Source: Myxococcota bacterium
Lineage (GTDB): Bacteria; Myxococcota_A; SURF-8
Assembly (NCBI GenBank): GCA_963674735.2
Contig: CAXXQS010000001.1
Coordinates: forward strand, 2,112,001 to 2,176,000
Direction of reading: 5' to 3'
Length of the DNA: 64,000 nt
Position numbers and translations under genes: made by a program. The notes beneath the pieces are model-generated. The model was given only the letters and a program-made list of their open reading frames with translations, did no database searches and was not told the origin of the DNA. Below are positions 3,517 to 61,996 of this stretch, piece after piece; within the stretch, counting starts at the first letter, position 1, and each line of letters begins with the position of its first letter.

Positions 3517-5340
3517 TTACTTGGCGTCTAGCTCGCAAATAGCCGGAAAAGCGAAGCTGCAATATTTGTCGTTCCAGCCACCGTCGAGGTTTTCGCCCAG
3601 GACGACGCAGTTCTGGTTTTGATCGCCGTTGGGCTGGCCGGAGGCCCAAGCGGTGAATCCCAGCGTTTCCCCCGCCGGACCGGTAAACGTCCCGTCCGTT
3701 TCGCGATCGTTGACGCCGATCCACCAGTTTTCCTGCATGATTGCAAAGGCTTGCTCGACCAGAAAATCCTGTTCGGGCTGAGAGGTCGGCAGCGCCAGAT
3801 CACCGCCATGATATTCACAGTAGGCTTTCGCAAATTCCCAACTGCAGGTCGTCTGCGACAGCAAATAGTTTTTGCCGCCGAAGGTACGCGCCTGGGCCGG
3901 ACCGTCCATCGTCTGGCATTTCAACCAGTTCTGGGCGAATTCATGCCGATCCTCAATGAAGGCCTTCATTTCGGCCAGCTTTTGCGTGTGCAGATCCTGG
4001 GTGTAGGGCTTTCGCGTATCCGCCGCCATGTCGTCGGCGATCTGCGCGGCATAGGTGTCGACGCGCGCCTGTAGCGTGTCCACATCGTAATGAAAAAGCA
4101 CCTCGGCAATGACCTCCAGGTAACGGCTGCGCCAGGGATCGTCGGCCAGCAAAGTCAGAATATTCGCGGGCTTGCCGTTGTCGTACCCCACATCATAGGT
4201 GATCAGGTCGGCGCTGACGCTGCCGATTTCGAATGAGTAATCGATATCCCAGGGAATCATCACAATGCCGCGGCTCGGATGATTGTAGATGATCCAGTTC
4301 ATCCCCCCCACGAAATAGCCGTCGTATTGTGGGATGATCGATTCGGCCGCCCATTCGAGGATCACCTCCTCCACATCGAAAGACGCTTCCATCTCGCTGA
4401 CGCTGAGGTCGGAAATGAACAGTTCCAGATCCGATTTATCGGGATCGGATTCGTTGGTTTTTTTCTCGTGCCACTTGTACAGATTGCCTTCATCCTCATC
4501 CCCGAAATTGCGTTCCAGAAACTCCTGGTCCACATGCTCGATATGCGAATAAAAGCCGTAATATTCACCATTTACAACCAAACGCGCGTGATTGACGCAA
4601 GGAGCCGGCACGCCCGTCTCCCGCATGATTTCCATGCCCATCCGCTCGTGCAGCATGGTCTGGTCGTTATGCGGCGCATCGAGGTTGGTTTTGCGAACGC
4701 CGTGAAAACGATGCTTGTCGTTGATTTGCTTGAACGAAATATTGAACTGCATCTTGTCCGGACTCATCGCCCAATTCAGAGGGTTGCCCTTGAGGCGAAT
4801 CATGGCATCGTAAATCACTTCCTCTTGATATTTCAGGTGTCGAACAGGAAAATACGCCGATCGTTCTTCGTCCGAAATATCAAGTGTCTGCCAGTTGGCC
4901 CAGATATTCTCGATCTGCGCCCACACGGCGGAATCCACATCGATCTCGTAGGTGATGATCGGCGTCCGGTAGATATCCGAACAAGCTTTCGGCAGGCTGA
5001 CATCATCCTCCGAGTTTTCGCTTTCATCTGCGTCGCCATCGGGTGAGACATCCCCGTCGGGCGGCGTATCCCCATCGGGCGGCGTATCGCCGTCGGACGG
5101 CGTATCGCCATCCGGCAAGACATCCCCATCGGGTGTGTCGGCGAAATCGAACTCATAGGTTTCCTTATCCGTGTCGCCGTCCGGGGCCGGATCGGCATCC
5201 CCGTCGCTAAACGACGTGGACGAATCGGAACAGCCGACAGTGAAAAGCAGGATGCCGGACACGGCCAGCATCGAGAAAAAAACTCGCCACCTAAAACATT
5301 CAGCGGCTATCGTTCGTTCAGTCAACATAACCACACTCAC
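3517..5340 (-). CDS. CotH kinase family lipoprotein with DGD repeats and a C-terminal C-type lectin domain
   Basis: Lipobox LLFTVGC and PDGDTP repeats. CotH motifs IRLKGN, LHER, HARLVVNGEYYGFY..IE.VD, GNLYK, PWDIDYSF. CTLD motifs SWEFAKAYC..GGDLA, WWIG, WASGQPN, NCV, WNDKYC. Exact start uncertain. Confidence 0.88.
   Translation of the reverse strand: MSVVMLTERTIAAECFRWRVFFSMLAVSGILLFTVGCSDSSTSFSDGDADPAPDGDTDKETYEFDFADTPDGDVLPDGDTPSDGDTPPDGDTPPDGDVSPDGDADESENSEDDVSLPKACSDIYRTPIITYEIDVDSAVWAQIENIWANWQTLDISDEERSAYFPVRHLKYQEEVIYDAMIRLKGNPLNWAMSPDKMQFNISFKQINDKHRFHGVRKTNLDAPHNDQTMLHERMGMEIMRETGVPAPCVNHARLVVNGEYYGFYSHIEHVDQEFLERNFGDEDEGNLYKWHEKKTNESDPDKSDLELFISDLSVSEMEASFDVEEVILEWAAESIIPQYDGYFVGGMNWIIYNHPSRGIVMIPWDIDYSFEIGSVSADLITYDVGYDNGKPANILTLLADDPWRSRYLEVIAEVLFHYDVDTLQARVDTYAAQIADDMAADTRKPYTQDLHTQKLAEMKAFIEDRHEFAQNWLKCQTMDGPAQARTFGGKNYLLSQTTCSWEFAKAYCEYHGGDLALPTSQPEQDFLVEQAFAIMQENWWIGVNDRETDGTFTGPAGETLGFTAWASGQPNGDQNQNCVVLGENLDGGWNDKYCSFAFPAICELDAK
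5032..5134 (-). repeat. 18-bp coding tandem repeat encoding (PDGDxx)n
   Basis: Translation PDGDVL PDGDTP SDGDTP PDGDTP PDGDVS PDGDA. Confidence 0.85.
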
Positions 5341-6939
5341 TTAGCGGTTCAAATAACTGGACGCGGCTTGCTGGCGGTCTTGCAGATAGCTGCGCACCAC
5401 GTCGACCTCATTCTCCACCTCTTCCACCGTATAGCCACGCTTGGGATCATCGGCGACATACGATTCAAGCGAGCTTTCCAAGTCGTCGATCCAGGCATCC
5501 AGCCCCAGCGCTTGAATACCGCTGACCACAAGTTCGAGTTGGTCCTCATAGCGGGATTGACAGGCCGGGAGTTCCAGGCAGCGCGCAAACAACACACTGG
5601 AACTGACTCCGAAGCTCACTTCCTGCACGAAGGTTTTATCCGTCCCCGCCGGCAACATGGTGAAGAAACCCTGTTTATCGCTATGCAGATAATAGTTGTT
5701 GGCGGCCAGCGTATAGCCATCCGCCTGGCCGATGTAATGTTCCACGGCCATCAGCCGAAGGGCGAGATCCAGATCGATCACGGAACCCACCGCCGCCGCC
5801 CAATCGTCATCCGAACCGGAGTTGATGGTGCTGATTAGAAGAGCCAGGTCGCTGATATCGTCATCATCGCCTTCATCGACCTCGAAATTCTCTTCCTGGC
5901 CGAGATACAGATCCACCATACCCTCATAGACGTGCTCCATGCTCTCGAAGGTGGAATCGGTGTATATATCGTCATAGGGTTCGATAACCGCATAGAGACC
6001 GTAATCTTCGCCGTTGACTCGCACCCAGGCGTATCCGGTTCGAGAAGCGGGAATATCCACCTCACGGAAAATGTAATAGGACAACGCCTCGTGCAGCATG
6101 GAAGTATCGTCCACCATGTTGTTCAAGGTCAGCTTTTTCAGCCCGGCGAAGCGCAGGTTGTCGTCGTATTTGTCGAAACGAATCTTGAACGACGCCTTCT
6201 GATCGATCGGCCGGAACGACAAGCCGCTCTTCAGACGCAGCCCCACCGATAAGGAGCCGGAGCTTTCCCCATCGGCTGTCATGGCAAAATCGGCTTCGGT
6301 ATACTCGTAGGGAGACGTCAACAGGCTCTGATAGGCTTCATCGGTCACCGTCAAGTCGATCTCGTAGACCGCCATCGTGTCGAACACCGACGCGGGCGAA
6401 TCCGCCTGCAAGCGATTCGGCTCTTCCTTGGTGGGATAGGTGGCTTGCCACGAACCGGTCAGGTCGGGATAGCGTCCCCAGCTTTCGCCGTCCTTGAGCT
6501 CTCCGATTTTCACGTAATCCAGAATGGTTCCGGTAGGATCGATCAGGTAAGCGGTATCGCCCGATTTCACTCCGAAGCCGAAGCCCGCTTCATCATCTTC
6601 CTCCTGCTTAACCACCAGATGTCCGCCGGGGGGAATTTCGGCCGGGCCGGGAATCAGATATTGATGGCCCGACTTTTCCAGATCGTCCGCCACGATCCAA
6701 CCCGCCACATCGATCGTGTCTTCAGACGATCGATTGGCCAGTTCCAGCCAATCGCGCCCCTGCACGTCGATCTCATTGAGCACCAGATCCGTCGGGGGAA
6801 TGAATTCTTCGCCGGAGTCCAGATCGCCATCCGGGCTTTCGTTCCCATTATCTCCCGAGCAGGCGGATAGCAGCGAGAAGGCCAGCAGGCTCCCGAGTAA
6901 CAGCAGCCGGAAAAGGCTTGGTTTCATGTTTGATTTCAT
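5341..6939 (-). CDS. CotH kinase family lipoprotein with a lamin-tail domain
   Basis: Likely ATG 6939. Lipobox LLSAC and a single PDGD. Lamin-tail motifs LVLNEI..DWLELAN..SWGRYPD. CotH motifs GLRLK, KASFKIRF, LKKLTLNN, LHEALSY, GLYAVIE, DGY, NNYYL, PAGTDKTF. Confidence 0.88.
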   Translation of the reverse strand: MKSNMKPSLFRLLLLGSLLAFSLLSACSGDNGNESPDGDLDSGEEFIPPTDLVLNEIDVQGRDWLELANRSSEDTIDVAGWIVADDLEKSGHQYLIPGPAEIPPGGHLVVKQEEDDEAGFGFGVKSGDTAYLIDPTGTILDYVKIGELKDGESWGRYPDLTGSWQATYPTKEEPNRLQADSPASVFDTMAVYEIDLTVTDEAYQSLLTSPYEYTEADFAMTADGESSGSLSVGLRLKSGLSFRPIDQKASFKIRFDKYDDNLRFAGLKKLTLNNMVDDTSMLHEALSYYIFREVDIPASRTGYAWVRVNGEDYGLYAVIEPYDDIYTDSTFESMEHVYEGMVDLYLGQEENFEVDEGDDDDISDLALLISTINSGSDDDWAAAVGSVIDLDLALRLMAVEHYIGQADGYTLAANNYYLHSDKQGFFTMLPAGTDKTFVQEVSFGVSSSVLFARCLELPACQSRYEDQLELVVSGIQALGLDAWIDDLESSLESYVADDPKRGYTVEEVENEVDVVRSYLQDRQQAASSYLNR

Positions 6940-7009
6940 GTGCACTTCCAGATTTTCAACAAAAGATGAATGTTTCGTGCCAGCGCAGCCGTGAATTGTT
7001 AAGGCAGTA

Positions 7010-7780: not shown

Positions 7781-7782
7781 GA

Positions 7783-11984: not shown

Positions 11985-12013
11985 CAACTGAATTGTATGC
12001 AAATGTTCGGATA

Positions 12014-15000: not shown

Positions 15001-17352
15001 TACCGCCGCCTCGCATTGTTCGGGATCGCGACAGACGACCGGGTCGGAGCCATCGCACTGACCGCTCTGGCATTCGTCGTGCTGGGTGCAGGCATCCGCG
15101 TCGTCGCAGTCCGTACCGTCGGGTTCGTCGGCATAATCGCAGGTTCCGGTTGTGTCGTTGCAGATTCCGGCCTCCTTGCATTCCGCCGGAGCGGCGCAGA
15201 CCACATCATCGGAGCCGACGCAGTCGCCGGTAGCGCACTCGTCGGTTTGCGTGCAGGCATTGCCGTCGTTGCAATCGGTGCCATCCGCTTTGTTGACGGC
15301 ATCGCAGTTGCCGGTGGCCGAATTGCAGGCCACGCTCTGCTCGCACTGGCGCGGCGCAGGACATTGCACCGGATTGCCACCCACGCACTGGCCATTGTCG
15401 CAGGCATCGCTTTGGCTACAGGCATCGCTGTCGTCGCAGGGGTAGCCGTCGCTCTGGTTCTCGTACTCACAGGTGCCGGTTGCGGAATTGCATTCCCCGG
15501 CTTTCTTACACATTTCGGGATCGGCGCAGACAACCGGGTCTTCGCCACGGCAGCTCCCGTTGTAGCATTCATCCACCTGGGTACAGGCATCGCTGTCATC
15601 GCAATCGCTGCCGTTGGCTTTGCTGCGCCAGTGGCTCTGATCGAACACGGTGTCGCAGTATTGGCACTCGTTTCCGGGATTCTCCCAGGCATCTTCCAGG
15701 CACAATCCATCGATGTAGCAGAAATTCGCGATCGGCGGATGGGTGCACGTCCCGGCATCGCAGACATCGTCGGTACAGGCCACCTGGTCGTCGCTGCAAG
15801 CGCCGCCATTGTTTATCGGCAGACAGCCGTCGCAACAAGCGTCGTCGGTTCCGCAGGTGCAGCCATCTCCCAAGCACTGACCGCCCTGGCAGGCGTCATT
15901 GCCGGTATTGGGATTGCCGTCATCGCAAGCGGTGTCGTCATCCTTGTTGGCCACGTCGCACAGGCCGGTTTCTTCATTGCAGGTGATGCTTTCCTGGCAC
16001 TGGTTGGGATCGTCGCATTCCTTGAGATTACCGCCCAGGCACTGCCCCGTGTCGCAGAGGTCGGTCTGCGTACAGGCATTCCCGTCATCGCAGGGCGAAT
16101 CGTCCGCCGCGTCGGCATACTCGCAGAGACCGGACTCGCTATTGCAAACGCCCTCTTGTTTGCAGGCCTCCGGATCGGCGCAAACCACCGGATTTTCGCC
16201 GCGGCACGCTCCGTTGTAACAGGCATCGCTTTGCGTACAGGCATCGTCATCATCGCAGGCCGTGCTGTTGGCTTTGCTGCGCCAGCGGGTTTGTGAAATG
16301 GAGATATCGCAATACTGGCAATCGTTCTGGGGGTTATCCCAGGTATCCTCGTAACACTGACCATCGATGGCACAGAAGCCGCTTTGGGGGGTGTGCACGC
16401 ATATCCCCTCGTCGCAGACATCGTCCGTGCAGCTAAGGCTGTCGCTGGTGCAGGGCGTATCATCCTCCTCGAATGCGAAGAAGCAGACCCCCGTATTCGG
16501 GTTGCACACGCCGTCCTTTTTGCAGACATCCGCAGCCCCGCACACGACCGGGTTGGCGCCGACACAGATGCCGCTTTGGCAGCTATCGCTCTGGGTGCAG
16601 GCATTTTCGTCATCGCAAACCGTGTCATCCGCCACGTCGGCGTAATCGCATACACCCGTATCCGGGTTACAAATCCCCGTTTCCTTGCAGACCGCCGGAT
16701 CGGCGCACACGACCGGGTTGGTGCCGACACAGATGCCGCTCTGGCAACTATCGCTCTGGGTACAGGCATCCGCGTCGTCGCAAACCGTGTCATCCGCCAC
16801 GTCCGCGTAGTCGCACACACCCGTATTCGGGTTACAAATTCCCGCTTCCTTGCAAACGTCCGGATCGGCACAGACAACCGGGTTGGAGCCGATGCACGTG
16901 CCGCTCTGGCAACTATCGCTCTGAGTGCAGGCGTCCGCATCGTCGCAGAGCGTGCCATCGCTGACGTCGTTGTAATCGCAATTGCCCGTTACCGTGTTGT
17001 ACACATCGTCGGTACAGGGATTGCCATCGTCGCAGACGGTATCCACATCGCCGTCCGTATCGCCATCGACATCGCCATCGACATCGCCGTCGGTGGGATC
17101 GTCGCCATCGGCGGGTTTGTCACCGTCGGTGGGTGTGTCGCCATCGGTGGGATCGTCGCCGTCGGTCGGATCATCGCCATCGGTGGGATCGTCGCCGTCG
17201 GCGGGTTTGTCGCCATCGGTGGGGGTGTCGCCGTCCATGGGCAGATCGCCGTCTTCGGCGTTTTCGTCGTCACCACCGCAGGCGGACAGAACGAACAGGG
17301 AAAGAAATAAGACCAACAGCAGCTTGAATGTACTCGTATTCGCGGTTTTCAT
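12067..17352 (-). CDS. 1761-aa lipoprotein: DGD repeats, Cys-rich CDDxxACT repeats, MopE-like metal motif, Ig/CARDB-like domains, C-terminal matrixin (M10) metalloprotease
   Basis: Lipobox VLSAC, (PTDGDD)n and many CDD(G/A)xACTxxDxC units. DVDQD...DC...VYPG..EWCDGKDNNC. CARDB-like DLAVTEF..E..ENNN. Metzincin HEIGHMLGLDH (12178-12210) with Met-turn ATMY. Confidence 0.9.
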   Translation of the reverse strand: MKTANTSTFKLLLVLFLSLFVLSACGGDDENAEDGDLPMDGDTPTDGDKPADGDDPTDGDDPTDGDDPTDGDTPTDGDKPADGDDPTDGDVDGDVDGDTDGDVDTVCDDGNPCTDDVYNTVTGNCDYNDVSDGTLCDDADACTQSDSCQSGTCIGSNPVVCADPDVCKEAGICNPNTGVCDYADVADDTVCDDADACTQSDSCQSGICVGTNPVVCADPAVCKETGICNPDTGVCDYADVADDTVCDDENACTQSDSCQSGICVGANPVVCGAADVCKKDGVCNPNTGVCFFAFEEDDTPCTSDSLSCTDDVCDEGICVHTPQSGFCAIDGQCYEDTWDNPQNDCQYCDISISQTRWRSKANSTACDDDDACTQSDACYNGACRGENPVVCADPEACKQEGVCNSESGLCEYADAADDSPCDDGNACTQTDLCDTGQCLGGNLKECDDPNQCQESITCNEETGLCDVANKDDDTACDDGNPNTGNDACQGGQCLGDGCTCGTDDACCDGCLPINNGGACSDDQVACTDDVCDAGTCTHPPIANFCYIDGLCLEDAWENPGNECQYCDTVFDQSHWRSKANGSDCDDSDACTQVDECYNGSCRGEDPVVCADPEMCKKAGECNSATGTCEYENQSDGYPCDDSDACSQSDACDNGQCVGGNPVQCPAPRQCEQSVACNSATGNCDAVNKADGTDCNDGNACTQTDECATGDCVGSDDVVCAAPAECKEAGICNDTTGTCDYADEPDGTDCDDADACTQHDECQSGQCDGSDPVVCRDPEQCEAAVTCNSVSGACEATNKPDDTACQDEDDTCTLNDACQGGVCVGEPKDVDQDTYVDVVCGGNDCQDEDDEVYPGHVEWCDGKDNNCLYGIDEGCAVCTDETYQTQSYGTPYTTYLMPAGALALNRYMVTPASVNLFAVEAVWLQDSGDVGSGNFHAVLYRDEDGGPGELLAQSDSQAVTAFYPSKVRFDFQQAVALKNADYYWLGFVYEDDQTDSADYVSLLADDGAMASERNGYLYWPETADPNDYEEGWYALSASWFIDPIGCGEGADIRYHSRTDNVGGIYEAGDSAAITVTLENVGFDTSLDLVVTLLSNTDDITLGNDTANVSGIAVSATGQADQAFALTFDELAGGSYYLVLQIEDGTNIWYEWLEVFVHATPVDCDAPYSDISGDYIHYDDTYATAKLFGADVGTMYANPYPVEADFTLHEFDVEFYTNATSTHSSNFFFRVHRHGAGAPGEVLWESGSRSVSGTGIISYTQTVDPPLTFPIGEIFWISVEVLDDQSGTDWMLPFQDDGASPSLNYGLVSVDSGDSWFSEWWQNGEGDYVSPMLYLFPKGCEGTRLSYASHIDNSGDGIDPGDTVNLTVTIQNEGALAVTGVTGELSSSNGDVSVTDSTADFGSVTASGSKAATDPFTIQIAAGASAYQYPLDLVIEDGNGRSWTDRFYIILNGGTYDLAVTEFTANLAGSNVTYDITVSNLGTVDVLSEFRMDLYMDLENPPSPGQVSSNWTGTLLGLAAGEDYSFTLDSAALAQGNYASYFQVDTTELVSEGVENNNIAGPESFSIGDDTFVLLDPAVKWFPADVPVPYSMNPSGEDSIAGDAEFDEVEAAFQVWEDVADATLAFTYSGSTTREGFTYDGYNTVSWDDPDNDLDSGVLAAAMPIWNSQTMQTSGLTFKRLVDTDIVFNNAVDFCTHADALAPGCYDEFDIRGIAVHEIGHMLGLDHPDVADATMYYATGPCNADQVTLEPSDSNGVAFIYPE
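16460..16955 (-). repeat. Three tandem copies of a 165-bp (55-aa) Cys-rich unit
   Basis: CDDADACTQSDSCQSGxCxGxNPVVCADPxVCKExGICNPxTGVCDYADVADDTV recurs. The anchor ctatcgctctg recurs about every 165 bp (near 16582, 16748, 16913). Confidence 0.85.
17042..17255 (-). repeat. 18-bp and 12-bp coding tandem repeats, (PxDGDx)n and (DGDV)n
   Basis: Translation PMDGDT PTDGDK PADGDD PTDGDD ... DGDV DGDV DGDT DGDV. Confidence 0.9.
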
Positions 17353-19124: not shown

Positions 19125-19126
19125 GA

Positions 19127-23080: not shown

Positions 23081-23773
23081 CTATTCCAGTCCTGGCCTGG
23101 ATTGGCGCACGCAGCGGACATTGGCCTGGCCGCCTTTTTGATTCCAGCCAAGGTCGGGCCTGTAAAAGCCGATGAACCACGCTTTTTCAGTCTCGGTAAA
23201 ATTAAGAACGATTGACGAAGACCAGAAATAAGCGCCAGCTTCGCAGCTTCCTTCCAATTCCTCCGGCCAATGGCAGCCTCCGCCGGCATCGGGACAAAGG
23301 CAGGAGTCGGTCTCGCTGCACGATGGATAGCCGAGGCAGTTGTCTGTAACCTGACAGCTTCCGCCGATTTCCAATTGGGGACAATTGCGAACCAACGACC
23401 GCAGCTCGCTGATCGTCGGCAAGCGCCAGTCATCATAGCCTCCAATATCCCGTTCGTAACAATAGTTCCAGGCGGCGCCCCAGTTCATCGTTTTGGGAGG
23501 GGATGGCGACTCCCAGGTCAGGCCGGTGGCGGGATCAAACCATACACCATCGGGTGTCTCGGCATCTGCCGTCTCGCCATCGCCATCGGGTGCCTCGGCA
23601 TCCACCGTTTCGCCATCGCCGTCGGGCACCTCGGCATCCGCCGTTTCGCCGTCGCCGTCGCATTCGCAGACCGCTCCATCGTTCGAGCCTTCAGCGCAGC
23701 CGAGAATCGACAGCACCATGGCTAGAACCCAAACCCATCGAAAACAAAACTCTACGTTGACACTGATTTTCAT
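23081..23773 (-). CDS. DUF1566 (Lcl C-terminal) domain lipoprotein with DGD repeats
   Basis: Lipobox SILGC; three copies of DGDGETxDAExP. DPATGLTWE, NW..A..YC, GGYDDWRLPTISELRSL, YFWSSS, VRCVR. Start uncertain (23818 TTG or 23773 ATG). Confidence 0.88.
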   Translation of the reverse strand: MKISVNVEFCFRWVWVLAMVLSILGCAEGSNDGAVCECDGDGETADAEVPDGDGETVDAEAPDGDGETADAETPDGVWFDPATGLTWESPSPPKTMNWGAAWNYCYERDIGGYDDWRLPTISELRSLVRNCPQLEIGGSCQVTDNCLGYPSCSETDSCLCPDAGGGCHWPEELEGSCEAGAYFWSSSIVLNFTETEKAWFIGFYRPDLGWNQKGGQANVRCVRQSRPGLE

Positions 23774-43381: not shown

Positions 43382-45271
43382 TTATTTGATGGTGCGCGAA
43401 TGCAGATCGGTGATCCGCTCTGCACGATAGCCGTTCCATTGCTGAACGACAATCTGCTGCATCTCGGGATCGCCGTCGGCTTCCACTTCATCGTCCGTAT
43501 CGCCATCCACCACCGGCTCCATCGTCACGGTCGGCGGCAATTCGAATTCGAAAACGACGGTGTTCGGGCTGCCCGGTTTCACTTCGGCCACCCGCGGACT
43601 CAGCAAAGATTCCCCGTTGAAATCCAGACTCCGCCCACCGTCACAGACCATGACATTGCCATTGGCCAAGCGATCGGCATCGCCGACAAAGCTGGCGAAA
43701 TACGGGACGGAACCGGTGTGCTCCCAGGTCTGAGTCGCAGTCTTGTTGTCATAATCAAGTGAGAATTGAACGGCCCGCGAAAAGTCAGTACCCGAACGCG
43801 TCAATTCCTGGCTGATATTGCCGTTGTCGAAAATCAGCAGTTCGCCATTGGCCTGCCACTCAGGCGCATGCTGATGGCTGAACCAACTGCCTGATGACAA
43901 AGTGAAATCGCCGTTTTCGCCCAGTTTCCACATCAAAGCGCCTGTGGTGCGATTGACCGCGATAATGTAATCGAGATGACGAGCCGAGAAGATGATGGAA
44001 TCATCGGATGCGCGATACACCAAAGCGTTGCCATGGCTCCAATCTCGGTTGTTCGGCAAAGGGAACCGGCGCAAAGAGCTATCAAAACCAGTGCGCCGAT
44101 AATCAGTGCTGACATAGTCAAACAAGCTCCAGGAATTGACAATCACTCCGGCAGTCGTGATTTCGTAAGCGATATCACCCACGATATTGATGACTTCCTG
44201 CTCGACTTCAGCTTCAACTTCGGCTTCCGCTTCGACTTCAGCCTCTACTTCCTGTTCGGCTTCGACTTCGTCGTCAGCATCACCATCGACGACAGTACGG
44301 GCGACCGCAGGAGCAACCACTTCCTCAACCGCATTTCGGGATAAAGCCAGAAAATTTCCGTTGGGCAACTCGATGATATCATGATGGAAACCATAGACGG
44401 GCTCACCCTCATAGGTCTCCCCATCGAAATCAAGTTCCAGAACGGCATTGCCCATCCAGTCGTATTCGACGATGACCGATCCGGCGGTGGTCAGGATGTT
44501 TCCCCGGCTGGTGATGTGGAAAACACCACCAAAATCGAGGGTATACCAAACGATTTCACCGGCTTCATCAACGATAAGCCAGCCATTTTCCGTACTGGCG
44601 CCGCGTCCCGAAAACGAAACCGCCGTATACCCGGGAGCCATTTGTGCCGTATCTGCAGAAATCAAGTTAACCGTCGGCAGGGTAGCGGGCAGTGCGGCCG
44701 TAGTGAAATTCTGTGCTGTGCCACGTGCTTCCGAACCGGCTTCGGCAGTCGCCGCAATCGGAGTGAACGTATAGGCCGTTTCCGCATGCAGCCCGATGAT
44801 ACCGATTTCAAAGCTTTTCGCCAAAGCGCTGGTCGGTCCGACGACCCAACTCGTATCAGTCCCCACCTCAGCCACTTCCACACTACCGTAGGCATCGATG
44901 TCCGTGTCGAAAGTCACGGTTCCCGACAAGACATTGTTGATGTTTTCAAGAGCCAAGATGTTGGAAATAACCGGTTTGACGATCACGGCATCGCCATCGC
45001 TATCCCCATCGGTATCGCCATCGGGGACATCCCCATCGGGGCTCTCTTCTTCTTCATCCCCATCGGTATCGCCGTCGGGTTCATCACCGTCAGGATCGTC
45101 GCCGTCGGGATCATCGCCGTCGGGTTCGTCGCCATCCGGATCATCGCCATCGGGGGCTTCCGATTCCGTATCGCCATCTATTCCGCTGTCACTCTCATCG
45201 CCGCAAGCCCACGTAAGCAAAGCGATCATGGCAATCATAAACAAAATCGTTATTGCGTTGCTCTTTTTCAC
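43382..45271 (-). CDS. Aryl-sulfate sulfotransferase (ASST) family lipoprotein with DGD repeats
   Basis: GTG 45271 after GAGGTG; lipobox TWAC. Ig-like N-domain, D..GEIVWY, FHHDI..LPNGN, DWSHGNAL, SARH, WKLG, FSHQHAP, FDNG, SRAV, RL.NGN, YRA.R. Confidence 0.9.
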   Translation of the reverse strand: MKKSNAITILFMIAMIALLTWACGDESDSGIDGDTESEAPDGDDPDGDEPDGDDPDGDDPDGDEPDGDTDGDEEEESPDGDVPDGDTDGDSDGDAVIVKPVISNILALENINNVLSGTVTFDTDIDAYGSVEVAEVGTDTSWVVGPTSALAKSFEIGIIGLHAETAYTFTPIAATAEAGSEARGTAQNFTTAALPATLPTVNLISADTAQMAPGYTAVSFSGRGASTENGWLIVDEAGEIVWYTLDFGGVFHITSRGNILTTAGSVIVEYDWMGNAVLELDFDGETYEGEPVYGFHHDIIELPNGNFLALSRNAVEEVVAPAVARTVVDGDADDEVEAEQEVEAEVEAEAEVEAEVEQEVINIVGDIAYEITTAGVIVNSWSLFDYVSTDYRRTGFDSSLRRFPLPNNRDWSHGNALVYRASDDSIIFSARHLDYIIAVNRTTGALMWKLGENGDFTLSSGSWFSHQHAPEWQANGELLIFDNGNISQELTRSGTDFSRAVQFSLDYDNKTATQTWEHTGSVPYFASFVGDADRLANGNVMVCDGGRSLDFNGESLLSPRVAEVKPGSPNTVVFEFELPPTVTMEPVVDGDTDDEVEADGDPEMQQIVVQQWNGYRAERITDLHSRTIK

Positions 45272-49263: not shown

Positions 49264-51648
49264 TTATTCACAGGAGGCCAATTCCGGGAAATCGTAGCTG
49301 AGCTGGTACAATCCCTTCACGATCCCTCGCAGGCCGCTTTCGTCGTTCTCGCCTTTGTTGCCGTATCCCAAACAGAACCAGCCGTCCAGAAAGTCGACCA
49401 GATCGCGTCCGGCGTAGCCGCGATCGCTGAACTTGGCGTAATCTTTGCCCAGATAAGTTGTGACAACCGGCCAGACACCAATGTTGGTGACGGTATCCTT
49501 GCTTTCGTTGCTGCTATCGAAAATATCCAGCAGCACCGCGGCCGCAATCGCTTCGGATAGATTGCCGTCGAGCTTGCCATCCTTATTGCCGCGCGGTTTA
49601 CTGGCAGGCGGTGTTTCGATGCTGTAGAATACGCCCATGCCACCAGCATTGGTGTCCATATAACGCGTCTCGTTGTGGGCGGTAACACCAAAGAAAGTCG
49701 CCCACCCCTCGCTCCAGGAAAGAGTCGGCTCTTCCTGTCGGTTGGATGAATGCCCACCCCCCGGACTATCGCTCTTGCTGATAACATTCATCACGAAATG
49801 ACCGTATTCGTGCCCGATGATAATATCATCGTAGGCGTCTGAATCCGCCGCCGCGCCCAGGATGTAGATTTTGTTTGTCCGCGTACAGAACGAAGCATTT
49901 TTCCCACCTGGTTTTTGGCCGTCTGTCCAATAAAACGGCATCATGGGCATGGTTTGACCGCTGTAAATACGCGCGTAAGTGCTGCACTTGACGCCGGTCT
50001 CCCAGATATTGAGCGCCGCCGCGTCTTCGTCTTTCTTGATTTCGAAATCCACATCCTTGTTATCCGGTACTTCATTCTCGTTGAATCGGTCTTCCAGCAC
50101 CCAGCTGTACAGTTTGCCGCTCAGATCATTCACCGATTGTTTGAGACGTTCGTTATCCTGTTCAGCCACCACTTCGACGTAATAGCCGGGGACACCATCG
50201 TTCTCGAAGCTGATTTCATACCGACCGCGAGAATCCGTCTGGCCTTCGGCCAGCAGTTCGTCATCATCATCGCGACGCACTTCCACTTTGATGAAACGCA
50301 CCGGCACCATGACGCCGTTGTTGGAAAGTCCCGCAGCCGTGACGGCGAAATCCTCATACTTCACCTTTCCCGAAACCTTGTAGGTGCACTTGTTCTCGAA
50401 TGTCCAACTCACCGAGTCTCCGGCGGGTCCGAGACTGAAACTTTCGACGAGCGGAGAATCCTCACCGCAGAAAGCCATTGTCACTGTCCCGCTGGCCCCA
50501 CCCAACTCGCAATCGGAATACATGCGCGCCTGAACGGTGAAAGTCCCATTGGGCGACTGTCCATCGGGCCAAAAGACGTTCTCGTTGTTTACATTATCGA
50601 TATCGCATCCGGCGTTTGAATCCAGATCGAGTTGGCCGCCGGTTCCGGAAACCTTGTGCCCATAGTAAATCTGCTCGCCGCCGGGTTCATCGACATGAAG
50701 ATCCACATCCGTGGCGGTATCCCACGACAAACTGACCTTGACTTCACCGCTTTGGACCTCCACTCCGTTGAGCGCCAGTGGTTGTTCCGGGCCGAGACGG
50801 CCCAAGGCATCCAGCAACGACACCAGAATATTCAAGGCTCCCCCGTCTTTGAAAGCCGGACGCGCCGATGGCTGGCTGAAAATATCCGAGTCGAATTTAA
50901 GTGTGAACGGAATGGTGAGCGCCGGTCCCGTCACCGGCAGGACGAAATACCCTTCGTAGCCCTGCACCTGAATGAGCGCTTGATAAATGGGTTTCTCGGA
51001 ACTGTAGGTGATGTCGTAATTGGCGCTGCCGCCATTGATGAACGTAACCGGACCCGCCAATGTCTGAATCGATGGCGCTCCCACGTCCGCCGAAGCCGTG
51101 GGGATCGGATCGAAGGTGAAATCCGCTCCAACCACTTCTACGGGAGGATAGCCGGGTTCGGAGGCAATCACTTCGACCTGCCCTTCGAACACTTGCGTAC
51201 CACCGCTGGACAACGTCAGTTCCGCATGCAAGCGGCAAACGCCGCTGACGCCGACATTACCGGAGATGGTCAAGGGTGAGGCTCCGCTTCCACTGGCCAG
51301 ACTGCCGCAACCGGTCCCCACCGCCTGTACGTTGATCGCGCTGGCGGCGGCGTATTCGACGGTCACCGTTACCGTCTCACCCGCCGCAGCTCGTTCCGGA
51401 TCGATGTGAAAAAACGGCGGCGAGTCGATGCCATCCGCCTTCAGTTCTTCATCGTTACTGATGGGATCATCGACTTCCATGGTGTCATCATCGTCATCAT
51501 CATCGTCTTTGTCTTTTTTATCCTTATCCTCGTCACTACCGGCACAACCCGTCAAAAGAAAGACTAGCACCAAAGCCAGTGTCAATGCGAAACGCACAGA
51601 CCTAGCCATGGCGGCCAACTGCCACTGCCAATTTTTCTCATTTTTCAT
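49264..51648 (-). CDS. Lipoprotein with poly-Asp linker, YfaP/DUF2135-like domain and C-terminal HExxH zinc peptidase
   Basis: Lipobox LLTGC and a D9 tract. VSLSWD..TDVDLHV.EP.G..IYY....GG.LDLDSN..C...NNENV. HEYGH...SDSPGG.H...SWSEGWA is gluzincin-like. Confidence 0.85.
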   Translation of the reverse strand: MKNEKNWQWQLAAMARSVRFALTLALVLVFLLTGCAGSDEDKDKKDKDDDDDDDDTMEVDDPISNDEELKADGIDSPPFFHIDPERAAAGETVTVTVEYAAASAINVQAVGTGCGSLASGSGASPLTISGNVGVSGVCRLHAELTLSSGGTQVFEGQVEVIASEPGYPPVEVVGADFTFDPIPTASADVGAPSIQTLAGPVTFINGGSANYDITYSSEKPIYQALIQVQGYEGYFVLPVTGPALTIPFTLKFDSDIFSQPSARPAFKDGGALNILVSLLDALGRLGPEQPLALNGVEVQSGEVKVSLSWDTATDVDLHVDEPGGEQIYYGHKVSGTGGQLDLDSNAGCDIDNVNNENVFWPDGQSPNGTFTVQARMYSDCELGGASGTVTMAFCGEDSPLVESFSLGPAGDSVSWTFENKCTYKVSGKVKYEDFAVTAAGLSNNGVMVPVRFIKVEVRRDDDDELLAEGQTDSRGRYEISFENDGVPGYYVEVVAEQDNERLKQSVNDLSGKLYSWVLEDRFNENEVPDNKDVDFEIKKDEDAAALNIWETGVKCSTYARIYSGQTMPMMPFYWTDGQKPGGKNASFCTRTNKIYILGAAADSDAYDDIIIGHEYGHFVMNVISKSDSPGGGHSSNRQEEPTLSWSEGWATFFGVTAHNETRYMDTNAGGMGVFYSIETPPASKPRGNKDGKLDGNLSEAIAAAVLLDIFDSSNESKDTVTNIGVWPVVTTYLGKDYAKFSDRGYAGRDLVDFLDGWFCLGYGNKGENDESGLRGIVKGLYQLSYDFPELASCE

Positions 51649-53554: not shown

Positions 53555-53614
53555 GAAAAACCAGTAACAGACCGGACAAATCGCAAATAGAATCGCGGGA
53601 TACGACCGCCCAAA

Positions 53615-55327
53615 TCAATCCAAGGCGGATAGAAAACCCTCCAACTCGACAACATCGAAACTATCCGTGTCCACGGTCACTAGGCGATCAGGATTATCTC
53701 CATCCTGGAAAATCAGCATCTGCGGTTCGTCATCGGTCGCGGGCAGCGATCGAATTTCTTCCTCGACATTCGACAGCTCGACGTGGCTTACCGCCCGTTC
53801 CGAGTCGAAGAGATCGATTCCGTAAAGATCGCAAATACGTTCCTCGGGCTCTTCCTCATCCAACCAATAGCAGTATCCCGTCATGTACAATTTTCCCGCT
53901 GCCAGATCGGGCGAATCATCGGCCACATCCAATTCGATGCGCTGAACCGAGGCACTGAGATCGTCTTCCGTTAAGGCTTCGAGATCGATAGCCGCCAGGC
54001 GTGTGGGGCGCTGATCCAGACAAAGCGCACGCCAGGACTCGTCGGTATCCAACACGATGCGATCGGCGCTGAAGCCGATTACGGCCTCCGTCACATTTTT
54101 CGCTCCGAACACCGCCAGATCCTGCAGTTTCACGACAGCCAAGGCGTCGCTACCATCCAAAAGCGCATACTCGGCCCGACCCTCGCGTTCCAGAAGTCGA
54201 ATTCGGCGGAGGTTGCCCTCGACCGCCAACCGCGAGACCCGAGCGCTGTCCACATGGACGCTCGCCAACTCACCCCAGCCAAGCGCCAACAGATAAAGCT
54301 CGCCCCGATCGACATACGGCACGCTGTCGTAAGGAACCAGCGGCAACGGAAATTTGTTGATCGCGAAACTCAGAGCCTCGTTGTCATCATCCCAAACCAT
54401 GTTGAGCGCCAGCACGTCGGAACCCAGATTCAAGTTCACGAAAAGAATCTCGCGGTCGTCCGTCCCTTCTTCCGGCTCGGCCATGTTGGCACTGATGCGC
54501 AAGCCCGTGATCCCAACACGCGAGGACGATTCCAGGCTCAGCGGAACCACGTTCACGTGGGCTTCCGCCTGATCCGCCGGATTGAACAACCACAGACGCC
54601 CGACGCCCGCCGCCACGATCAACTCCATCGAGCGCGCATCCGCATCCGCGCATAGATCCCCGGTGGTGCACAGGCGGAAAGTGCCGCTGAAGCGAATGGA
54701 ATCAATGCGGACGTCGTTTTGCGGCAAATCCAGCGTAAATGTTTCGCCGGCTTCGCGATCCACCACCAACAAGCGATGTTCGTTTTGCAGAATGGACGGC
54801 GACTCCGGAAAGTCGAAAGAATCCAATGATCGGTTGATGCCCGAATCGAACGGCTCCGCCTCCCTATCCTGGATATTGGAATCCGCATTGACGTAAAAGA
54901 CCAGCCAGCGACCATCGGGGGAGAACGAGGCGGCGTTGATGAGCGGCGACACATCCGGGATACTCAGCACTAACTCGCCCGCTTCGTCCGAAACGATGTG
55001 GAAGGTATTGATGTCTTGGGCCGCATACACGACATGGCTGCCGTCCGGATATACCAGCACCTGCCGCCAGCCTGCGACAATGTCTTCTTCCTTCTCCGCA
55101 CCGGGTAGATGCACAATCTGTGCTTTTTTATCGGGTTGACGCGGATCGACCAGCGCTACCTGGCCCGTTTCTGTCTCAACGTAAGCTAGATGCGTGTTCA
55201 AAAAGGTCGGTCCTCGCCAATCGTTTTTTTCCGACTCGGGACAACCCGCCAACGGGATCACCATCAAGCCGAGAAGCAAAACGGTCCAAAAGCGAGCGTA
55301 ACGGATGTTGTTTTTCATCGTTTTCAT
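53615..55327 (-). CDS. Beta-propeller lipoprotein (no DGD repeat)
   Basis: Lipobox PLAGC; YPDGSH and FSPDGRW propeller turns. Confidence 0.75.
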   Translation of the reverse strand: MKTMKNNIRYARFWTVLLLGLMVIPLAGCPESEKNDWRGPTFLNTHLAYVETETGQVALVDPRQPDKKAQIVHLPGAEKEEDIVAGWRQVLVYPDGSHVVYAAQDINTFHIVSDEAGELVLSIPDVSPLINAASFSPDGRWLVFYVNADSNIQDREAEPFDSGINRSLDSFDFPESPSILQNEHRLLVVDREAGETFTLDLPQNDVRIDSIRFSGTFRLCTTGDLCADADARSMELIVAAGVGRLWLFNPADQAEAHVNVVPLSLESSSRVGITGLRISANMAEPEEGTDDREILFVNLNLGSDVLALNMVWDDDNEALSFAINKFPLPLVPYDSVPYVDRGELYLLALGWGELASVHVDSARVSRLAVEGNLRRIRLLEREGRAEYALLDGSDALAVVKLQDLAVFGAKNVTEAVIGFSADRIVLDTDESWRALCLDQRPTRLAAIDLEALTEDDLSASVQRIELDVADDSPDLAAGKLYMTGYCYWLDEEEPEERICDLYGIDLFDSERAVSHVELSNVEEEIRSLPATDDEPQMLIFQDGDNPDRLVTVDTDSFDVVELEGFLSALD

Positions 55328-55339
55328 TTCCCCCTCCCC

Positions 55340-57016
55340 TCAGTCTATCTGGCCGTTAAGCTCGAATCCGGTAATCGTCACCGGTTCATCCGTGACGGTG
55401 TCGATGAACGTGATACGCCCATCCGGATGATCCTGAGCCACATACATGCGCCTCCCATCGGCCATGAGCCCGAGACTGGTGGGAGTCGAACTGAGATCCA
55501 TTTCGATAATACGCGCCCCACCGGCGGCCTTGAGGTCCATGATATGCACCTGGCGCGTGCCCGATCCCGCAACCGAAAGGTATCCCTTCGCTCCGTCACC
55601 GGTAAACGTGAATGCAGCCGGGTGAGCGTCGGTCAATTGCAGGACCGTCATGCCGGTCGCCAGATCGAGAACGGAATAACCATAGGAACGATCGATGGTG
55701 TCGTAGTAGTCGTCCTCGTAGTATGCATCCCCTTGATTTTTCTTATGCAAAACCAACAGGCGCAACACGCCGTCGCTGTCGGGTGGAGCAAAAGACAACG
55801 CCTGGGTGCGCTTGATCAGGTTGTGGGAATTCAGGCTTTCGTCATCGAGGCTGAAGATCCACACGTTACGGGTATTATTCAAGGTTGAATACAGCGCAAT
55901 CGTATTGTTGTCGGCGGCGGGTTCGGCCACGCCGATACCCTCGGGAATATCATAGAGATCGACCGCCTCGGCATCGGCAAAACCACCGGGAATGGATACG
56001 ACCAGCAGTTGATGCGTTTCACGCAGGGTGATGATCGCCCGACTGTCGTCGGGGAGCAAGTCGAGGTCGGTGGGAGGCGCGTCCAGTTCGAGTACCGCCA
56101 CCTCGCCGTTTTCGAAATCCACCATCCGCAGTTCGGCGGTTTCGATGCGCCGCACCAGGGCATACCGACCATCGGCGGTCACAAGCACTTCCCGATCGAG
56201 CGACGGCCCGGAAACCGCTTCAAGGGGGATATTCGGCGTCACTTCGGGGCTGTCCGGGTTGCCGAGATCGATAATGGTCGCCCCTTGATCGGTAATGACG
56301 AAAGCCTTCGATCCGTCGTTTTTCCAATGAACCGCCGTTGGATTAAGGCCGACGGTCAGCGGAAGGATCGGTGAATCAAGCTCGTCCAGGTCCGACGGAT
56401 CGCGCATGTCCACCAAACCGACGGATTGCAGGCTGCCGTATGCGGATGACGCATTCCCGGCCAGTTGACTGTTGAAATAAACGATGGCAAAAAGCCCGTT
56501 GGGCGCACAGGAAATCATGTTATAGCCCGCCGTTTTATCCGGATCGAGCGCCCAACTTGCCGTGCGGTCTTCATCCGGCTGCGCCATCACCAGACGGTCG
56601 GATGTTCGGTCGATGATCAGGGCGGTATTGGTTTCGGGTAACACCTGAATCGCGATCGGATCGCTTCCGGTGGACAGCGTGTGAATCACGAGCGTATCCG
56701 AGGCAATCGCGACCAGGTTTCCGGTCGCCGGATTGATCACGAAGAGGTAGTCATTGCTCGTCACCGGACGACTCACGTCGATCTCGATTTCCTGCTCGGG
56801 GGTATAGGGATCGTCTCCATCGGGATCGTCGCCGTCGGGATCGTCGCCGTCGGGATCGTCACCATCGGGGCTATCCCCATCCATTGGGGCGTCGCCATCA
56901 ACCGAATTGTCCCCCGACATCGATTCAGCGCTATCACTCCCACAAGCGACCGCCATCGCGAGAACCGACACTATCATCAGCCCACTCAAGAAAAACTCCC
57001 GCTTCATCCATCGCAT
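55340..57016 (-). CDS. YncE/YVTN-like beta-propeller lipoprotein with DGD repeats
   Basis: ATG 57016 after GGAGGTGG; lipobox AVAC; (DGDDP)n. TGSDP, VGLNPTAV, TADGRYA, PTDLDL.PD, MADGRRMYV, GRITFID. Confidence 0.85.
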   Translation of the reverse strand: MRWMKREFFLSGLMIVSVLAMAVACGSDSAESMSGDNSVDGDAPMDGDSPDGDDPDGDDPDGDDPDGDDPYTPEQEIEIDVSRPVTSNDYLFVINPATGNLVAIASDTLVIHTLSTGSDPIAIQVLPETNTALIIDRTSDRLVMAQPDEDRTASWALDPDKTAGYNMISCAPNGLFAIVYFNSQLAGNASSAYGSLQSVGLVDMRDPSDLDELDSPILPLTVGLNPTAVHWKNDGSKAFVITDQGATIIDLGNPDSPEVTPNIPLEAVSGPSLDREVLVTADGRYALVRRIETAELRMVDFENGEVAVLELDAPPTDLDLLPDDSRAIITLRETHQLLVVSIPGGFADAEAVDLYDIPEGIGVAEPAADNNTIALYSTLNNTRNVWIFSLDDESLNSHNLIKRTQALSFAPPDSDGVLRLLVLHKKNQGDAYYEDDYYDTIDRSYGYSVLDLATGMTVLQLTDAHPAAFTFTGDGAKGYLSVAGSGTRQVHIMDLKAAGGARIIEMDLSSTPTSLGLMADGRRMYVAQDHPDGRITFIDTVTDEPVTITGFELNGQID

Positions 57017-57705: not shown

Positions 57706-57706
57706 A

Positions 57707-60410: not shown

Positions 60411-60477
60411 GGTGCATCCTTTCGAAATTGTTTTATACCTCCACTCTTATATTATCTTTCATGCTCGGTCAAGAAGC

Positions 60478-60504
60478 AAAACGGCGATGGAAAACCACCG
60501 CCGC
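60478..60504 (-). terminator. Hairpin terminator, near-identical to the one at 62084-62110
   Basis: AAAACGGCGATGG-AAAA-CCACCGCCGC. Confidence 0.6.
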
Positions 60505-60595
60505 ACATGACAAGTGAAAACGGCAAGCACACACGACTTTGCCTACGTAGTTAAGGAGAATGTCGGAAACGGACTGCAATTAAGGATTATGATTC

Positions 60596-61996
60596 TCAGT
60601 AATCCCCGCAAGTCGATCGCTCTTTGCAGGTTGCAAATCGAATCGTGTCGTTGTCATCGTAGAAAGTCATGATTCGTCCGGCCTGTCCCGAGCCGGATGT
60701 GCCGACGATCGCGAGGTTGGACGCAAAATGCCAGGCCGTCTGTGGAATCGAATCCAGCGGAACCGAGTACCAGTCTCCCTGGGTTCTGGATAGAAACAGC
60801 ATCGATAAAGCATTTTTAGCGCTACGATAGGCTACCCATGGATAACGAACACTTGCATTGGGTCCGGTTGCTTCCGTGTGCGTCGTAATGCCGCAGGGGC
60901 CGGGGAAACCGATTTCAAAGGTCCGATCTTCGCTAAACGGCAGGGCGTTGGTCCCGCCGGTGACCCACAAATATGGGGTTTCGTCGTTTTCATCTAAAAA
61001 GCCAACGACACACATCTGGATCGGGGCATTATCGTTTTCGGGATACTGAATCTGGCGGAATGCGAAGAGGTTCTCCATGTTGTCGATGGCGAAGTTACTC
61101 GCCTTGTAACCACGGTTATTGAAACCGTTGAACAACTCCTCAGACTCCCGAAAACGTTGAGTTTCGTAGTCGTATTGATCCCAGACGGAATAGAGGTAGC
61201 GCAGTTGGGAGTTGGCATCGATCAGAATGATGGCACTAGCATCGTAATAGTTCGAACGAAACTTGCCGAAAACAACCTGTTTGGCATTGTTGAAAATATC
61301 CTGACCTTCGGTGATTTCGTCGAAAAGGTTTTCGCGTTTGACCCACCTCTCGGTCCTCTCCGTATCGTAATCCCACATCACGGAATCCGTGATGTGCGGA
61401 TCATCATCATAGATGCTATCCCAACCGTAGGTGTAAGCCAAAACCTGACCGCGAATGCCACCCATACAGCCGTCCACCCAGAGATAGGCATGGTTATAAG
61501 CCCCGATCTGATAGACGTCATTCCCGTCTACATTGACCCACACCATGTTGGTGTCTCCGCCCATTTGCGAAGCTAAAAAGTACAATCGGCCGCAGGCGTC
61601 CGTATCGAAATCCTTGACCTCGTAGTTTACCAGACCGAAATCACTCAAACGCGCGATGGTTTCGGTTCGATCCTGTATTTCATAGTCGTCGGTCATTCCG
61701 GAAAAATGATAGGCGTAGAGAATGGAATCGCTGTTACCGTTGACGAAAGACGCATAGTAGAAAACAGAATCGTTTTTCAACGCGATCTTTTCACCGTAAT
61801 AAGCCAATTCGCCATCTCCCGTCATCGGGGCGATGGACTTGCGGACGAAAGGATCGTCGGGGTTGTCGCCGTCGGGCGTGTCACCGTCATCACGATCATC
61901 ATCGTCGTCTTCCGGTTCATCCTCCCCACCACAGCCGACCACCAGTGACAGCACGAGCAGCAACAGAAATAACAGCTTTAAAACGTTCTTTAGCAT
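60596..61996 (-). CDS. Acidic/DGD-linker lipoprotein of unknown function
   Basis: ATG 61996 after GAGGA; lipobox VVGC; EDDDDDRDDGDTPDGDNPDD; Tyr/Trp/Asp-rich beta domain. Confidence 0.8.
   Translation of the reverse strand: MLKNVLKLLFLLLLVLSLVVGCGGEDEPEDDDDDRDDGDTPDGDNPDDPFVRKSIAPMTGDGELAYYGEKIALKNDSVFYYASFVNGNSDSILYAYHFSGMTDDYEIQDRTETIARLSDFGLVNYEVKDFDTDACGRLYFLASQMGGDTNMVWVNVDGNDVYQIGAYNHAYLWVDGCMGGIRGQVLAYTYGWDSIYDDDPHITDSVMWDYDTERTERWVKRENLFDEITEGQDIFNNAKQVVFGKFRSNYYDASAIILIDANSQLRYLYSVWDQYDYETQRFRESEELFNGFNNRGYKASNFAIDNMENLFAFRQIQYPENDNAPIQMCVVGFLDENDETPYLWVTGGTNALPFSEDRTFEIGFPGPCGITTHTEATGPNASVRYPWVAYRSAKNALSMLFLSRTQGDWYSVPLDSIPQTAWHFASNLAIVGTSGSGQAGRIMTFYDDNDTIRFATCKERSTCGDY

Follow-up and report, generated by a model that had tools for sequence, protein, structure and literature searches.

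Asp-Gly-Asp arrays beside the lipid anchors of a Myxococcota bacterium: a likely, undescribed tag for routing proteins to the cell surface

In a genome of the phylum Myxococcota (assembly GCA_963674735.2, here G000), a 64,000-nucleotide stretch of contig CAXXQS010000001.1 (positions 2,112,001 to 2,176,000; the window) encodes fifteen predicted lipoproteins in which the tripeptide Asp-Gly-Asp (DGD), often as an array, stands between the lipobox cysteine and the cargo. We have followed this element through the genome (5.26 Mb, 94% complete; 3771 genes called by a dicodon model, protein classes assigned by regular expressions) and into other Myxococcota. Judging from the sequences, DGD arrays are likely to be an undescribed tag that would help route anchored proteins to the cell surface. 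A description of the motif was not found in the literature searched, a search with subscription papers and supplements outside its scope.

Results

DGD tethers in the window

A lipobox cysteine is followed by DGD in all fifteen lipoprotein genes named in the original prediction, each of them an open reading frame, with 1 to 15 copies per gene; the spacings of 4, 5, 6 and 12 residues that it had described are all present. Positions below are those of the window, and distances are residues counted with the cysteine as +1. On the reverse strand, the CotH/C-lectin lipoprotein 3517-5340 (Cys codon start 5232) has eight copies at 5032..5205, the first at +10, and the adjoining LTD-CotH lipoprotein 5341-6939 has a lone DGD at +11 (6823..6831). 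Further along the same strand, a 1761-residue CARDB/M10 peptidase lipoprotein (12067-17352) carries 13 copies from +10, with period 6 and then 4 (17047..17253); an Lcl_C lipoprotein (23081-23773) carries three from +14 with period 12 (23579..23659); a delta-60/DUF5122 lipoprotein (23808-25268) four from +22 (25059..25124); and a Cys-rich DUF7107 lipoprotein (25441-26775) five from +7 with period 5 (26614..26682). Five genes follow on the forward strand. The FG-GAP lipoprotein 28267-29946 has 13 copies from +9, a period-5 array and then spaced copies in a Glu-rich stretch (28348..28635); the beta-helix/choice-of-anchor-Q lipoprotein 30011-31585 has 13 from +10 (30098..30349); the PMP-repeat lipoprotein 31610-34786 nine from +10 (31694..31846); a 1599-residue lipoprotein without Pfam match (34837-39636) four from +9 (34921..34986); and a MopE-motif lipoprotein (39713-41830) six spaced copies from +11 (39806..39940). 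The last four are again on the reverse strand: lipoprotein 41907-43274, with 14 copies, one at +2 and 13 in period 5 from +9 (42960..43169); the arylsulfate sulfotransferase lipoprotein 43382-45271, with 12 tether copies from +10 (44990..45178); lipoprotein 55340-57016, with six from +16 and S-G-D at +10 (56813..56899); and lipoprotein 60596-61996, with two from +16 after a poly-Asp run (61865..61888). The first copy thus lies at +7 to +16 in 13 of the 15 genes, the others having it at +22 and at +2 (array from +9). At the DNA level the coding pattern for DGDxPDGD has 45 matches in the window, against none in 100 shuffles.

The cargo domains found by Pfam are CotH (two proteins), C-lectin, LTD, M10 peptidase, Lcl_C, DUF5122, DUF7107, FG-GAP, beta-helix/PMP (two), MopE and ASST, with no Pfam match for four of the fifteen. 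The lipoproteins had been called unrelated, which is true of most of their cargo; CotH and beta-helix/PMP each occur in two. No NCBIfam model matched the tether among the 20 window proteins searched, and the thrombospondin type-3 (TSP3) family had no Pfam match among 26. A single-sequence AlphaFold2 model of lipoprotein 41907-43274 shows coil over residues 1-79 with a confidence (pLDDT) of about 39-45, and most of the cargo is also of low confidence.

Two other lipoproteins of the window, both on the reverse strand, depart from this plan. One, 53615..55327, is without tether DGD and had gone unmentioned in the original prediction. The other, 49264-51648, has a poly-Asp run at about +14 to +21 (51484..51507) and no DGD, as had been noted from the first. 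Its tether probably arrived with the gene, since poly-Asp or short acidic tethers are also found on its closest homologs (51-60% identity), and the gene was possibly acquired from a poly-Asp lineage. The family itself is unannotated, with 37 homologs and no Pfam match.

A genome-wide module with a fixed register

The DGD module is genome-wide and not peculiar to the window. Predicted lipoproteins account for 609 of the 3771 called genes (about 16%), and there are few long secreted enzymes without an anchor. Within 60 residues of the cysteine, at least one DGD is present in 327 of the 609, at least two in 247 and at least three in 183, compared with two DGD within any 60 residues in 15 of the 2204 proteins classed as cytoplasmic; the observation in the original prediction is confirmed. 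The lipobox expression also flags a false positive, 58971-60410, by eye a nucleotide-binding enzyme, and counts of DGD-free lipoproteins therefore contain some non-lipoproteins.

Together the tethers of the 609 hold 1247 DGD copies, against 218 in composition shuffles (5.7-fold). Other tripeptides stay at 0.99 (DGE), 0.58 (EGD), 1.2 (NGD) and 1.4 (DAD/DSD) times chance, with counts of 36 for EGE, 58 for DGE and 33 for EGD, and 1247 of the 1559 DG pairs continue with D. The commonest spacing between copies is 5 (648), then 6 (150) and 4 (130). When acidic low-complexity segments are compared, DGD is enriched about sixfold both in tethers (1329 versus 225) and before C-terminal anchors (119 versus 20), and such segments hardly contain DGD in proteins that are truly cytoplasmic, periplasmic or of the membrane. 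Raw DGD ratios reach 4-5 in the classes labelled "other", where the copies belong, by eye, to misclassified anchored proteins.

The first copy keeps its distance from the anchor. With DGD shuffled as a token, 57 of 305 lipoproteins would have their first copy at +9..+13 and 156 at +2..+8; the observed numbers are 212 and 16. Single-copy proteins peak likewise at +9..+13 (43 of 80). The interval +2..+8 itself holds an acidic patch free of basic residues in 202 of the 327 DGD carriers, compared with 6 of 43 envelope-type lipoproteins.

C-terminal anchors

Arrays also precede C-terminal anchors: 23 of the 26 proteins recognised by regular expression as MYXO-CTERM have at least two DGD within 60 residues. 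Across G000 and two further genomes, G036 and G024, the last DGD comes within 9 residues of the C-terminal cysteine in 1 of 38 proteins, against 17 expected, and this DGD-free zone of about 9 residues mirrors the N-terminal one. Of the 33 matches to TIGR03901 at E<=10 in G000, 14 MYXO-CTERM tails exceed the cut-off; the genome also encodes one myxosortase (NF040914, 130 bits), two GspD secretins and LolA; a LolC/E-type gene scores below its family cut-off and adjoins, by eye, an ABC ATPase and a BamA-like gene. TIGR03901 tails occur in all ten genomes of the order, as do GspD matches (over cut-off in eight), and a myxosortase is over cut-off in 239 of the 301 Myxococcota genomes sampled. Seventeen array-bearing proteins were left unanchored by the regular expressions; by eye, ten have a MYXO-like tail, four a missed lipobox, one is half of a split MYXO gene, one is a CFI-box-CTERM protein (confirmed) and one has no assigned anchor. 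The original prediction had held that the arrays are absent from the non-lipoprotein secreted proteins of the window. This is so there and fails genome-wide, where signal-I proteins with MYXO-CTERM or CFI-box anchors carry them; the prediction had missed these C-terminal anchors, as well as the fixed register and the lineage words described below.

A few of these loci have features of their own. The second GspD secretin lies outside the operon of the system for type II secretion (T2SS), at G000:C2:2223065-2225050, and two GspD matches occur in nine of the ten genomes of the order. The MYXO-CTERM gene G000:C1:952082-954857 is apparently split by a frame change just past its DGD array. G000:C1:957351-958820 encodes the only CFI-box-CTERM protein of the genome, and DGD linkers are found there too. 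For two genes, G000:C1:854941-860493 and G000:C2:1904697-1905611, a lipobox-like N-terminus was flagged as well as a MYXO-CTERM tail; in the former, 16 DGD precede the tail and the N-terminal cysteine is followed by none.

Selection on each copy

Selection was assessed on period-5 units that have a DGD to either side and were retained on DNA similarity alone. In these counts, which block duplications make non-independent and from which units beyond the similarity filter are dropped (70 of 616 middle units were non-DGD before filtering), the first Asp has 71 synonymous and no replacement changes (288 codons), the Gly 55 and one (327 codons) and the second Asp 73 and none (321 codons), or 144 against zero for both Asp together. 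Changes from Asp to Glu at these positions would be expected about 17 times if charge alone counted, and none was seen; the position after DGD tolerates Asp/Glu and other swaps. Every in-register DGD copy thus appears, from these comparisons, to be under strict purifying selection. Together with the 5.7-fold excess of DGD and the near- or below-chance frequencies of DGE, EGD and NGD, this bears out the earlier claim of selection on the tripeptide. Recent DNA slippage as the sole cause of the arrays can be rejected, the synonymous sites of adjacent copies being largely randomised (codon identity 0.61, versus 0.50-0.55 if independent), and so can a single shared signal-peptide cassette, the signal peptides of carriers being unrelated (18% identity).

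Carriers and non-carriers

The Pfam survey covered the first 520 residues of 199 of the 609 lipoproteins, from 40 regions picked as rich in DGD-free genes and hence a non-random sample. Envelope-type matches were found in about 35 of 124 DGD-free lipoproteins, compared with 2 of 75 DGD-bearing ones; the families in the DGD-free set are LptE, BamB, LpoB, PilP, AMIN, OmpA, PPIase, ZnuA, HlyD, LemA, LysM-M23 and TPR. A Pfam match was obtained for 36 of the 75 DGD-bearing proteins, mostly to glycosidases, lipases, phosphatases, Ig-like, PKD, EGF, Lcl_C and FGE domains. When 24 DGD-free envelope proteins were used as phmmer queries, 21 further lipoproteins were recovered, two of them with DGD. From these family assignments, envelope housekeeping lipoproteins appear to be mostly without DGD. 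The composition of the carriers differs as well: DGD is present in 252 of 308 long, Lys-poor acidic lipoproteins versus 4 of 60 Lys-rich ones.

Words of other lineages

DGDxPDGD occurs 545 times in G000, 262, 128, 44, 6 and 4 times in the five other members of its family, 35 times in G012 (another family of the same order), not at all in G005, G018 and G048, and 8 times or fewer in the remaining 291 of 301 genomes. In 500 kb of the sister genome G018, a G-D-x-D/E unit with its Gly at +11..+13, mostly in one copy, is found in 15 of 53 lipoproteins, against 0.7 in shuffles (the motif was spotted in the first 21 of these; by eye, 8 of the 32 later ones have it). In G012, DGD follows the lipobox in 7 of 17 lipoproteins, and poly-Asp stands before the MYXO tails; one orthologous MYXO linker, which has DGD in both G000 and G036, is poly-Asp in G012 and mixed in G018.

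Outside the order, where the evidence comes from two sampled genomes, a few small loci, the N-termini of homologs and pattern counts, other words take this place. DAG is the top tripeptide of G239, where about 16 of 34 lipoproteins (by eye) have their first unit at +8..+12, and it also stands before a MYXO tail there; in G151, 3 of 20 have (DT)n. Fourteen of the 301 genomes hold 60-240 copies of DAGxxDAG and 0-1 of DGDxPDGD, and genomes in the order of G000 hold 0-7 of DAGxxDAG, so that the DGD and DAG dialects are mutually exclusive between lineages. The sulfotransferase of the window shows the same with the cargo held constant. DGD tethers are absent from all 88 of its homologs, nine of which have DAG/PDA-type tethers from about +7..+13 (one with a taxon label, Kofleriaceae); thus the tether differs across lineages on the same cargo. 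From these sequences, DGD appears to be the dialect of one family, with G-D-x-D/E at about +12 in a sister family and DAG or (DT)n in that place in other Myxococcota. A pattern scan of all prokaryotes gave at least 80 loci; 14 come from two Myxococcota records and are mostly lipoprotein or MYXO-CTERM tethers, and the other 66 among the matches listed come one to a record, the majority actinobacterial and the majority outside lipoprotein tethers. For an Asp-Ala-Gly tether in myxobacterial lipoproteins, too, no description was found in the literature searched.

Neighbouring genes

The cluster 3517-11797 comprises, besides the two CotH lipoproteins, a VTC-domain gene, a TolC-type OEP, an HlyD-phytase-like fusion and a DUF4956 gene. 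VTC homologs are present in four of five relatives tested; none was found in DGD-rich G024 (94% complete), DGD-poor G018 has two copies, and unrelated control genomes have VTC as well. At 18189-21873 a Band-7 pair (HflK/HflC-like by eye) adjoins a cation-efflux/Band_7 fusion protein, and a 772-residue membrane protein without Pfam or NCBIfam match lies among the lipoprotein genes at 45544-47862.

Discussion

We suspect that DGD is an exact-sequence tag on a flexible acidic stalk, used by a surface-export route for lipid-anchored proteins. In this specific form the proposal is tentative, its chances falling short of even; an export or sorting signal, which was among the four options of the original prediction, nevertheless seems the best single reading of the sequences. 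The acidic stalk lies between a predicted lipid anchor (an N-terminal lipobox or a C-terminal MYXO-CTERM) and cargo domains whose type suggests that the carriers face outward; it starts some 9-13 residues from the anchor cysteine and would be disordered. A periplasmic reader held at a fixed height above the membrane could then bind the first unit, extra copies adding avidity and length, and the word may have co-evolved with its reader, giving DGD here, G-D-x-D/E in the sister family and DAG or (DT)n elsewhere. The separate acidic Gly/Ser/Asp patch, at +2 to +8, may belong to this address as well. That the reader would measure from the lipid is suggested by the register, the restriction to anchored cargo, the use of both anchor types and the lineage-exclusive words. 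Candidate readers are components of the T2SS, which MYXO-CTERM proteins and PulA-type lipoproteins use alike (PMC11980579), or a LolE-type cleft, since the cleft of E. coli LolE binds three residues at 12-16 (PMC12846838), which overlap the first DGD. It is because a reader would measure from the lipid, because the T2SS route is common to both classes and because LolE grips 12-16 that we rank an export tag first.

Several observations weigh against this proposal. DGD is not obligatory, as the entire stretch has dropped out of close paralogs without a break in frame (one pair at 92% identity, and pairs of the FGE family and of Lcl_C) and about 14 of the 124 DGD-free lipoproteins have enzyme or cargo domains (GH31, GDPD, S15, Lcl_C, FGE and others); conversely, an AhpC/TSA lipoprotein (four copies) and an HlyD-type protein (one) are envelope-type carriers. 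Unanchored secreted enzymes, which would serve as a control, are almost wanting in G000. G-D-x-D/E occurs in none of 19 lipoproteins of G005, a genome of the same order, and at the register in 2 of 20 in G048. The C-terminal free zone is in part the Gly/Ser signature of the MYXO-CTERM tail, and we know of no MYXO-CTERM proteins that are Lol substrates. Internal lipoprotein linkers more than 150 residues from the cysteine are as enriched in DGD as the tethers (246 versus 41), and the middle copies of long arrays are conserved too; for both reasons a per-copy function fits better than a single tag. A modification site or a cation-binding stalk accommodates per-copy conservation, internal arrays and dispensability about as well as an export tag. 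Finally, the contact made by E. coli LolE is sequence-independent (PMC12846838).

If each DGD is a covalent modification site, added outside the cytoplasm by a membrane-bound enzyme to give a decorated, protease-resistant stalk, the free zone would be the part of the chain beyond the reach of the enzyme. This enzymatic version of the modification-or-release option in the original prediction is unlikely, though a serious contender. Purifying selection on every copy, with change to neither Glu nor Asn, would follow from it, and so would the equal density of DGD in internal linkers, the lineage-exclusive words and the dispensability of DGD in paralogs; G000 also holds 23 PMT_2 (GT-C fold) and four Wzy_C proteins over cut-off. 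Ser-Asp repeats, the stalk between anchor and cargo in staphylococcal adhesins, are a similarly long and strict acidic repeat in anchored surface proteins and are reportedly glycosylated by SdgA/SdgB. Unlike them, DGD arrays keep a fixed register, serve lipid anchors in a diderm and have no Ser/Thr in half of their units. Because 869 of 1772 units are without Ser/Thr within -1..+2, the modified acceptor would have to be Asp, and we know of no periplasmic Asp-directed chemistry of such a kind. The acidic linkers of periplasm-facing proteins, which general O-glycosylation systems would include, are without DGD, and no candidate enzyme is linked to the motif. Similarly doubtful is a stalk in which DGD acts as a short turn chelating Ca2+ or Mg2+, so that the cation-loaded stalk stiffens or bridges to lipopolysaccharide and lifts the cargo with no protein reader. 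Metal-loop geometry would require what is seen, Asp strictly preferred over Glu and a fixed Gly, and Asp or Asn at -2 (35% versus 20% background) makes a D-x-D-G-D triad. In their D-G-D core, often with this Asp or Asn two residues ahead, the units recall Dx[DN]xDG, EF-hand and TSP3 loops (DxDxDGxxDxxD in TSP3; acidic ligands at 1, 3 and 5 and Gly at 6 in the EF-hand-like loop). Unlike such loops, they lie in predicted flexible linkers rather than folded domains and show no enrichment of the Gly after the last Asp (6% versus 7%). The relation to canonical DxDxDG or TSP3 loops offered in the original prediction is thereby rejected, with 260 of 1705 copies in Dx[DN]xDG and five TSP3-like matches in the first 120 residues of the 609 lipoproteins. 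The repeats of DDxP adhesins conserve a related DGDGD, and Ca-stabilised surface proteins are discussed alongside them (PMC7730722), a likeness that favours the cation stalk; the varying periods (4, 5, 6, 12) speak against it, and it leaves the unit fixed at +12 in G018 and the lineage-exclusive words unexplained.

Should charge and disorder alone be selected, DGD would be no more than the sequence with which an acidic, disordered linker began, and module shuffling and slippage would have spread it. Dialects that differ by lineage, orthologous linkers that are DGD, poly-Asp or mixed in sister families, and the loss of tethers in paralogs all suit this view, which is nonetheless improbable: it is largely refuted by the lack of any Asp-to-Glu change where about 17 were expected and the neighbouring position accepts them, and the randomised synonymous sites, the unrelated signal peptides and the fixed register count against it as well. 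Just as improbable is a release site, at which an Asp-specific protease, or isoAsp formation or Asp-Pro lability, would shed cargo from its anchor. DGD does stand between anchor and cargo at both ends, envelope proteins avoid it, and the DGD, DAG and DT words share an Asp with a small residue after it. Cleavage would, however, cut proteins apart at the 36 of 274 lipoprotein arrays that are internal; there are up to 16 copies, all conserved; and isoAsp formation needs no second Asp, which nonetheless follows DG as a rule. As isoAsp or acid lability, this option of the original prediction is weak, because other lineages put DAG or DT in the same place. Least credible, and very improbable, is a polyphosphate- or mineral-binding layer formed with the VTC-DUF4956-CotH genes: two CotH DGD lipoproteins do adjoin the VTC gene, but the 327 carriers are dispersed over the genome, and the distribution of VTC over G024, G018 and the unrelated controls does not follow DGD richness, on which ground we reject the link to VTC.

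Among the closest known systems is the lipoprotein export signal (LES) of Bacteroidota, CS(D/E)2 or K-(D/E)2 after the lipid cysteine, in which Asp and Glu are interchangeable, CSEE behaving like wild type (PMC6222051). As with the LES, an acidic sequence past the lipid cysteine sets apart hydrolase-type lipoproteins, and those that face the periplasm do without it. Unlike the LES, which sits at +3/+4, DGD starts at +9..+13, refuses Glu, repeats up to 16 times and is also found before C-terminal anchors and in internal linkers. We therefore reject identity of DGD with the LES on position and on Glu; it is the base-free patch at +2..+8, present in 202 of 327 carriers where DGD starts in 16 of 305 lipoproteins, that is the LES look-alike. 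Outer-membrane lipoproteins of E. coli likewise have a flexible linker between lipid cysteine and domain, of which only length and disorder matter (10.1101/2021.01.05.425367); here, in contrast, the exact tripeptide is selected and housekeeping lipoproteins do without it. The C-terminal carriers are members of the MYXO-CTERM/myxosortase/T2SS system, with TIGR03901 tails over cut-off, one myxosortase and T2SS secretins. For the M. xanthus member TraA, cleavage and surface anchoring have been shown and lipidation predicted (PMC11980579), and term look-ups in the main texts of PMC11980579 and 10.1101/2023.06.07.544157, with supplements outside the scope, turned up no description of an upstream acidic repeat. 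In the same phylum, the extracellular matrix sorting signal of M. xanthus is also position-specific and near the cysteine, an Ala at +7, in a report that left the export route unknown (PMC3222651). Ala at +7 accounts for just 7% over our 609 lipoproteins, and since only the first eight residues were aligned in that report, +9..+13 lay outside its view.

Stated more generally, a single periplasmic machine, either an exporter or an enzyme that modifies Asp, may read an Asp-centred dialect word (DGD, G-D-x-D/E, DAG or DT) about 10 residues from the lipid, at either end of the chain, for N- and C-lipidated proteins alike and so decide the fate of hundreds of proteins per genome; we regard this as a real possibility, approaching an even chance without reaching it. 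The route by which myxobacterial lipoproteins reach the surface or the matrix was left open in PMC3222651, and a direct mutational handle on it is offered by a strictly conserved word that sits at +9 to +13, has its mirror image before MYXO-CTERM anchors and is exchanged from family to family. Common in other parts of the phylum, the DAG dialect may open cultured species to such a test. If DGD is a modification site, a new Asp-directed envelope chemistry would be implied. If it is an export tag, the surface proteome would become predictable from sequence, with hundreds of hydrolases and adhesin-like proteins per genome, and the word could serve as a display tag.

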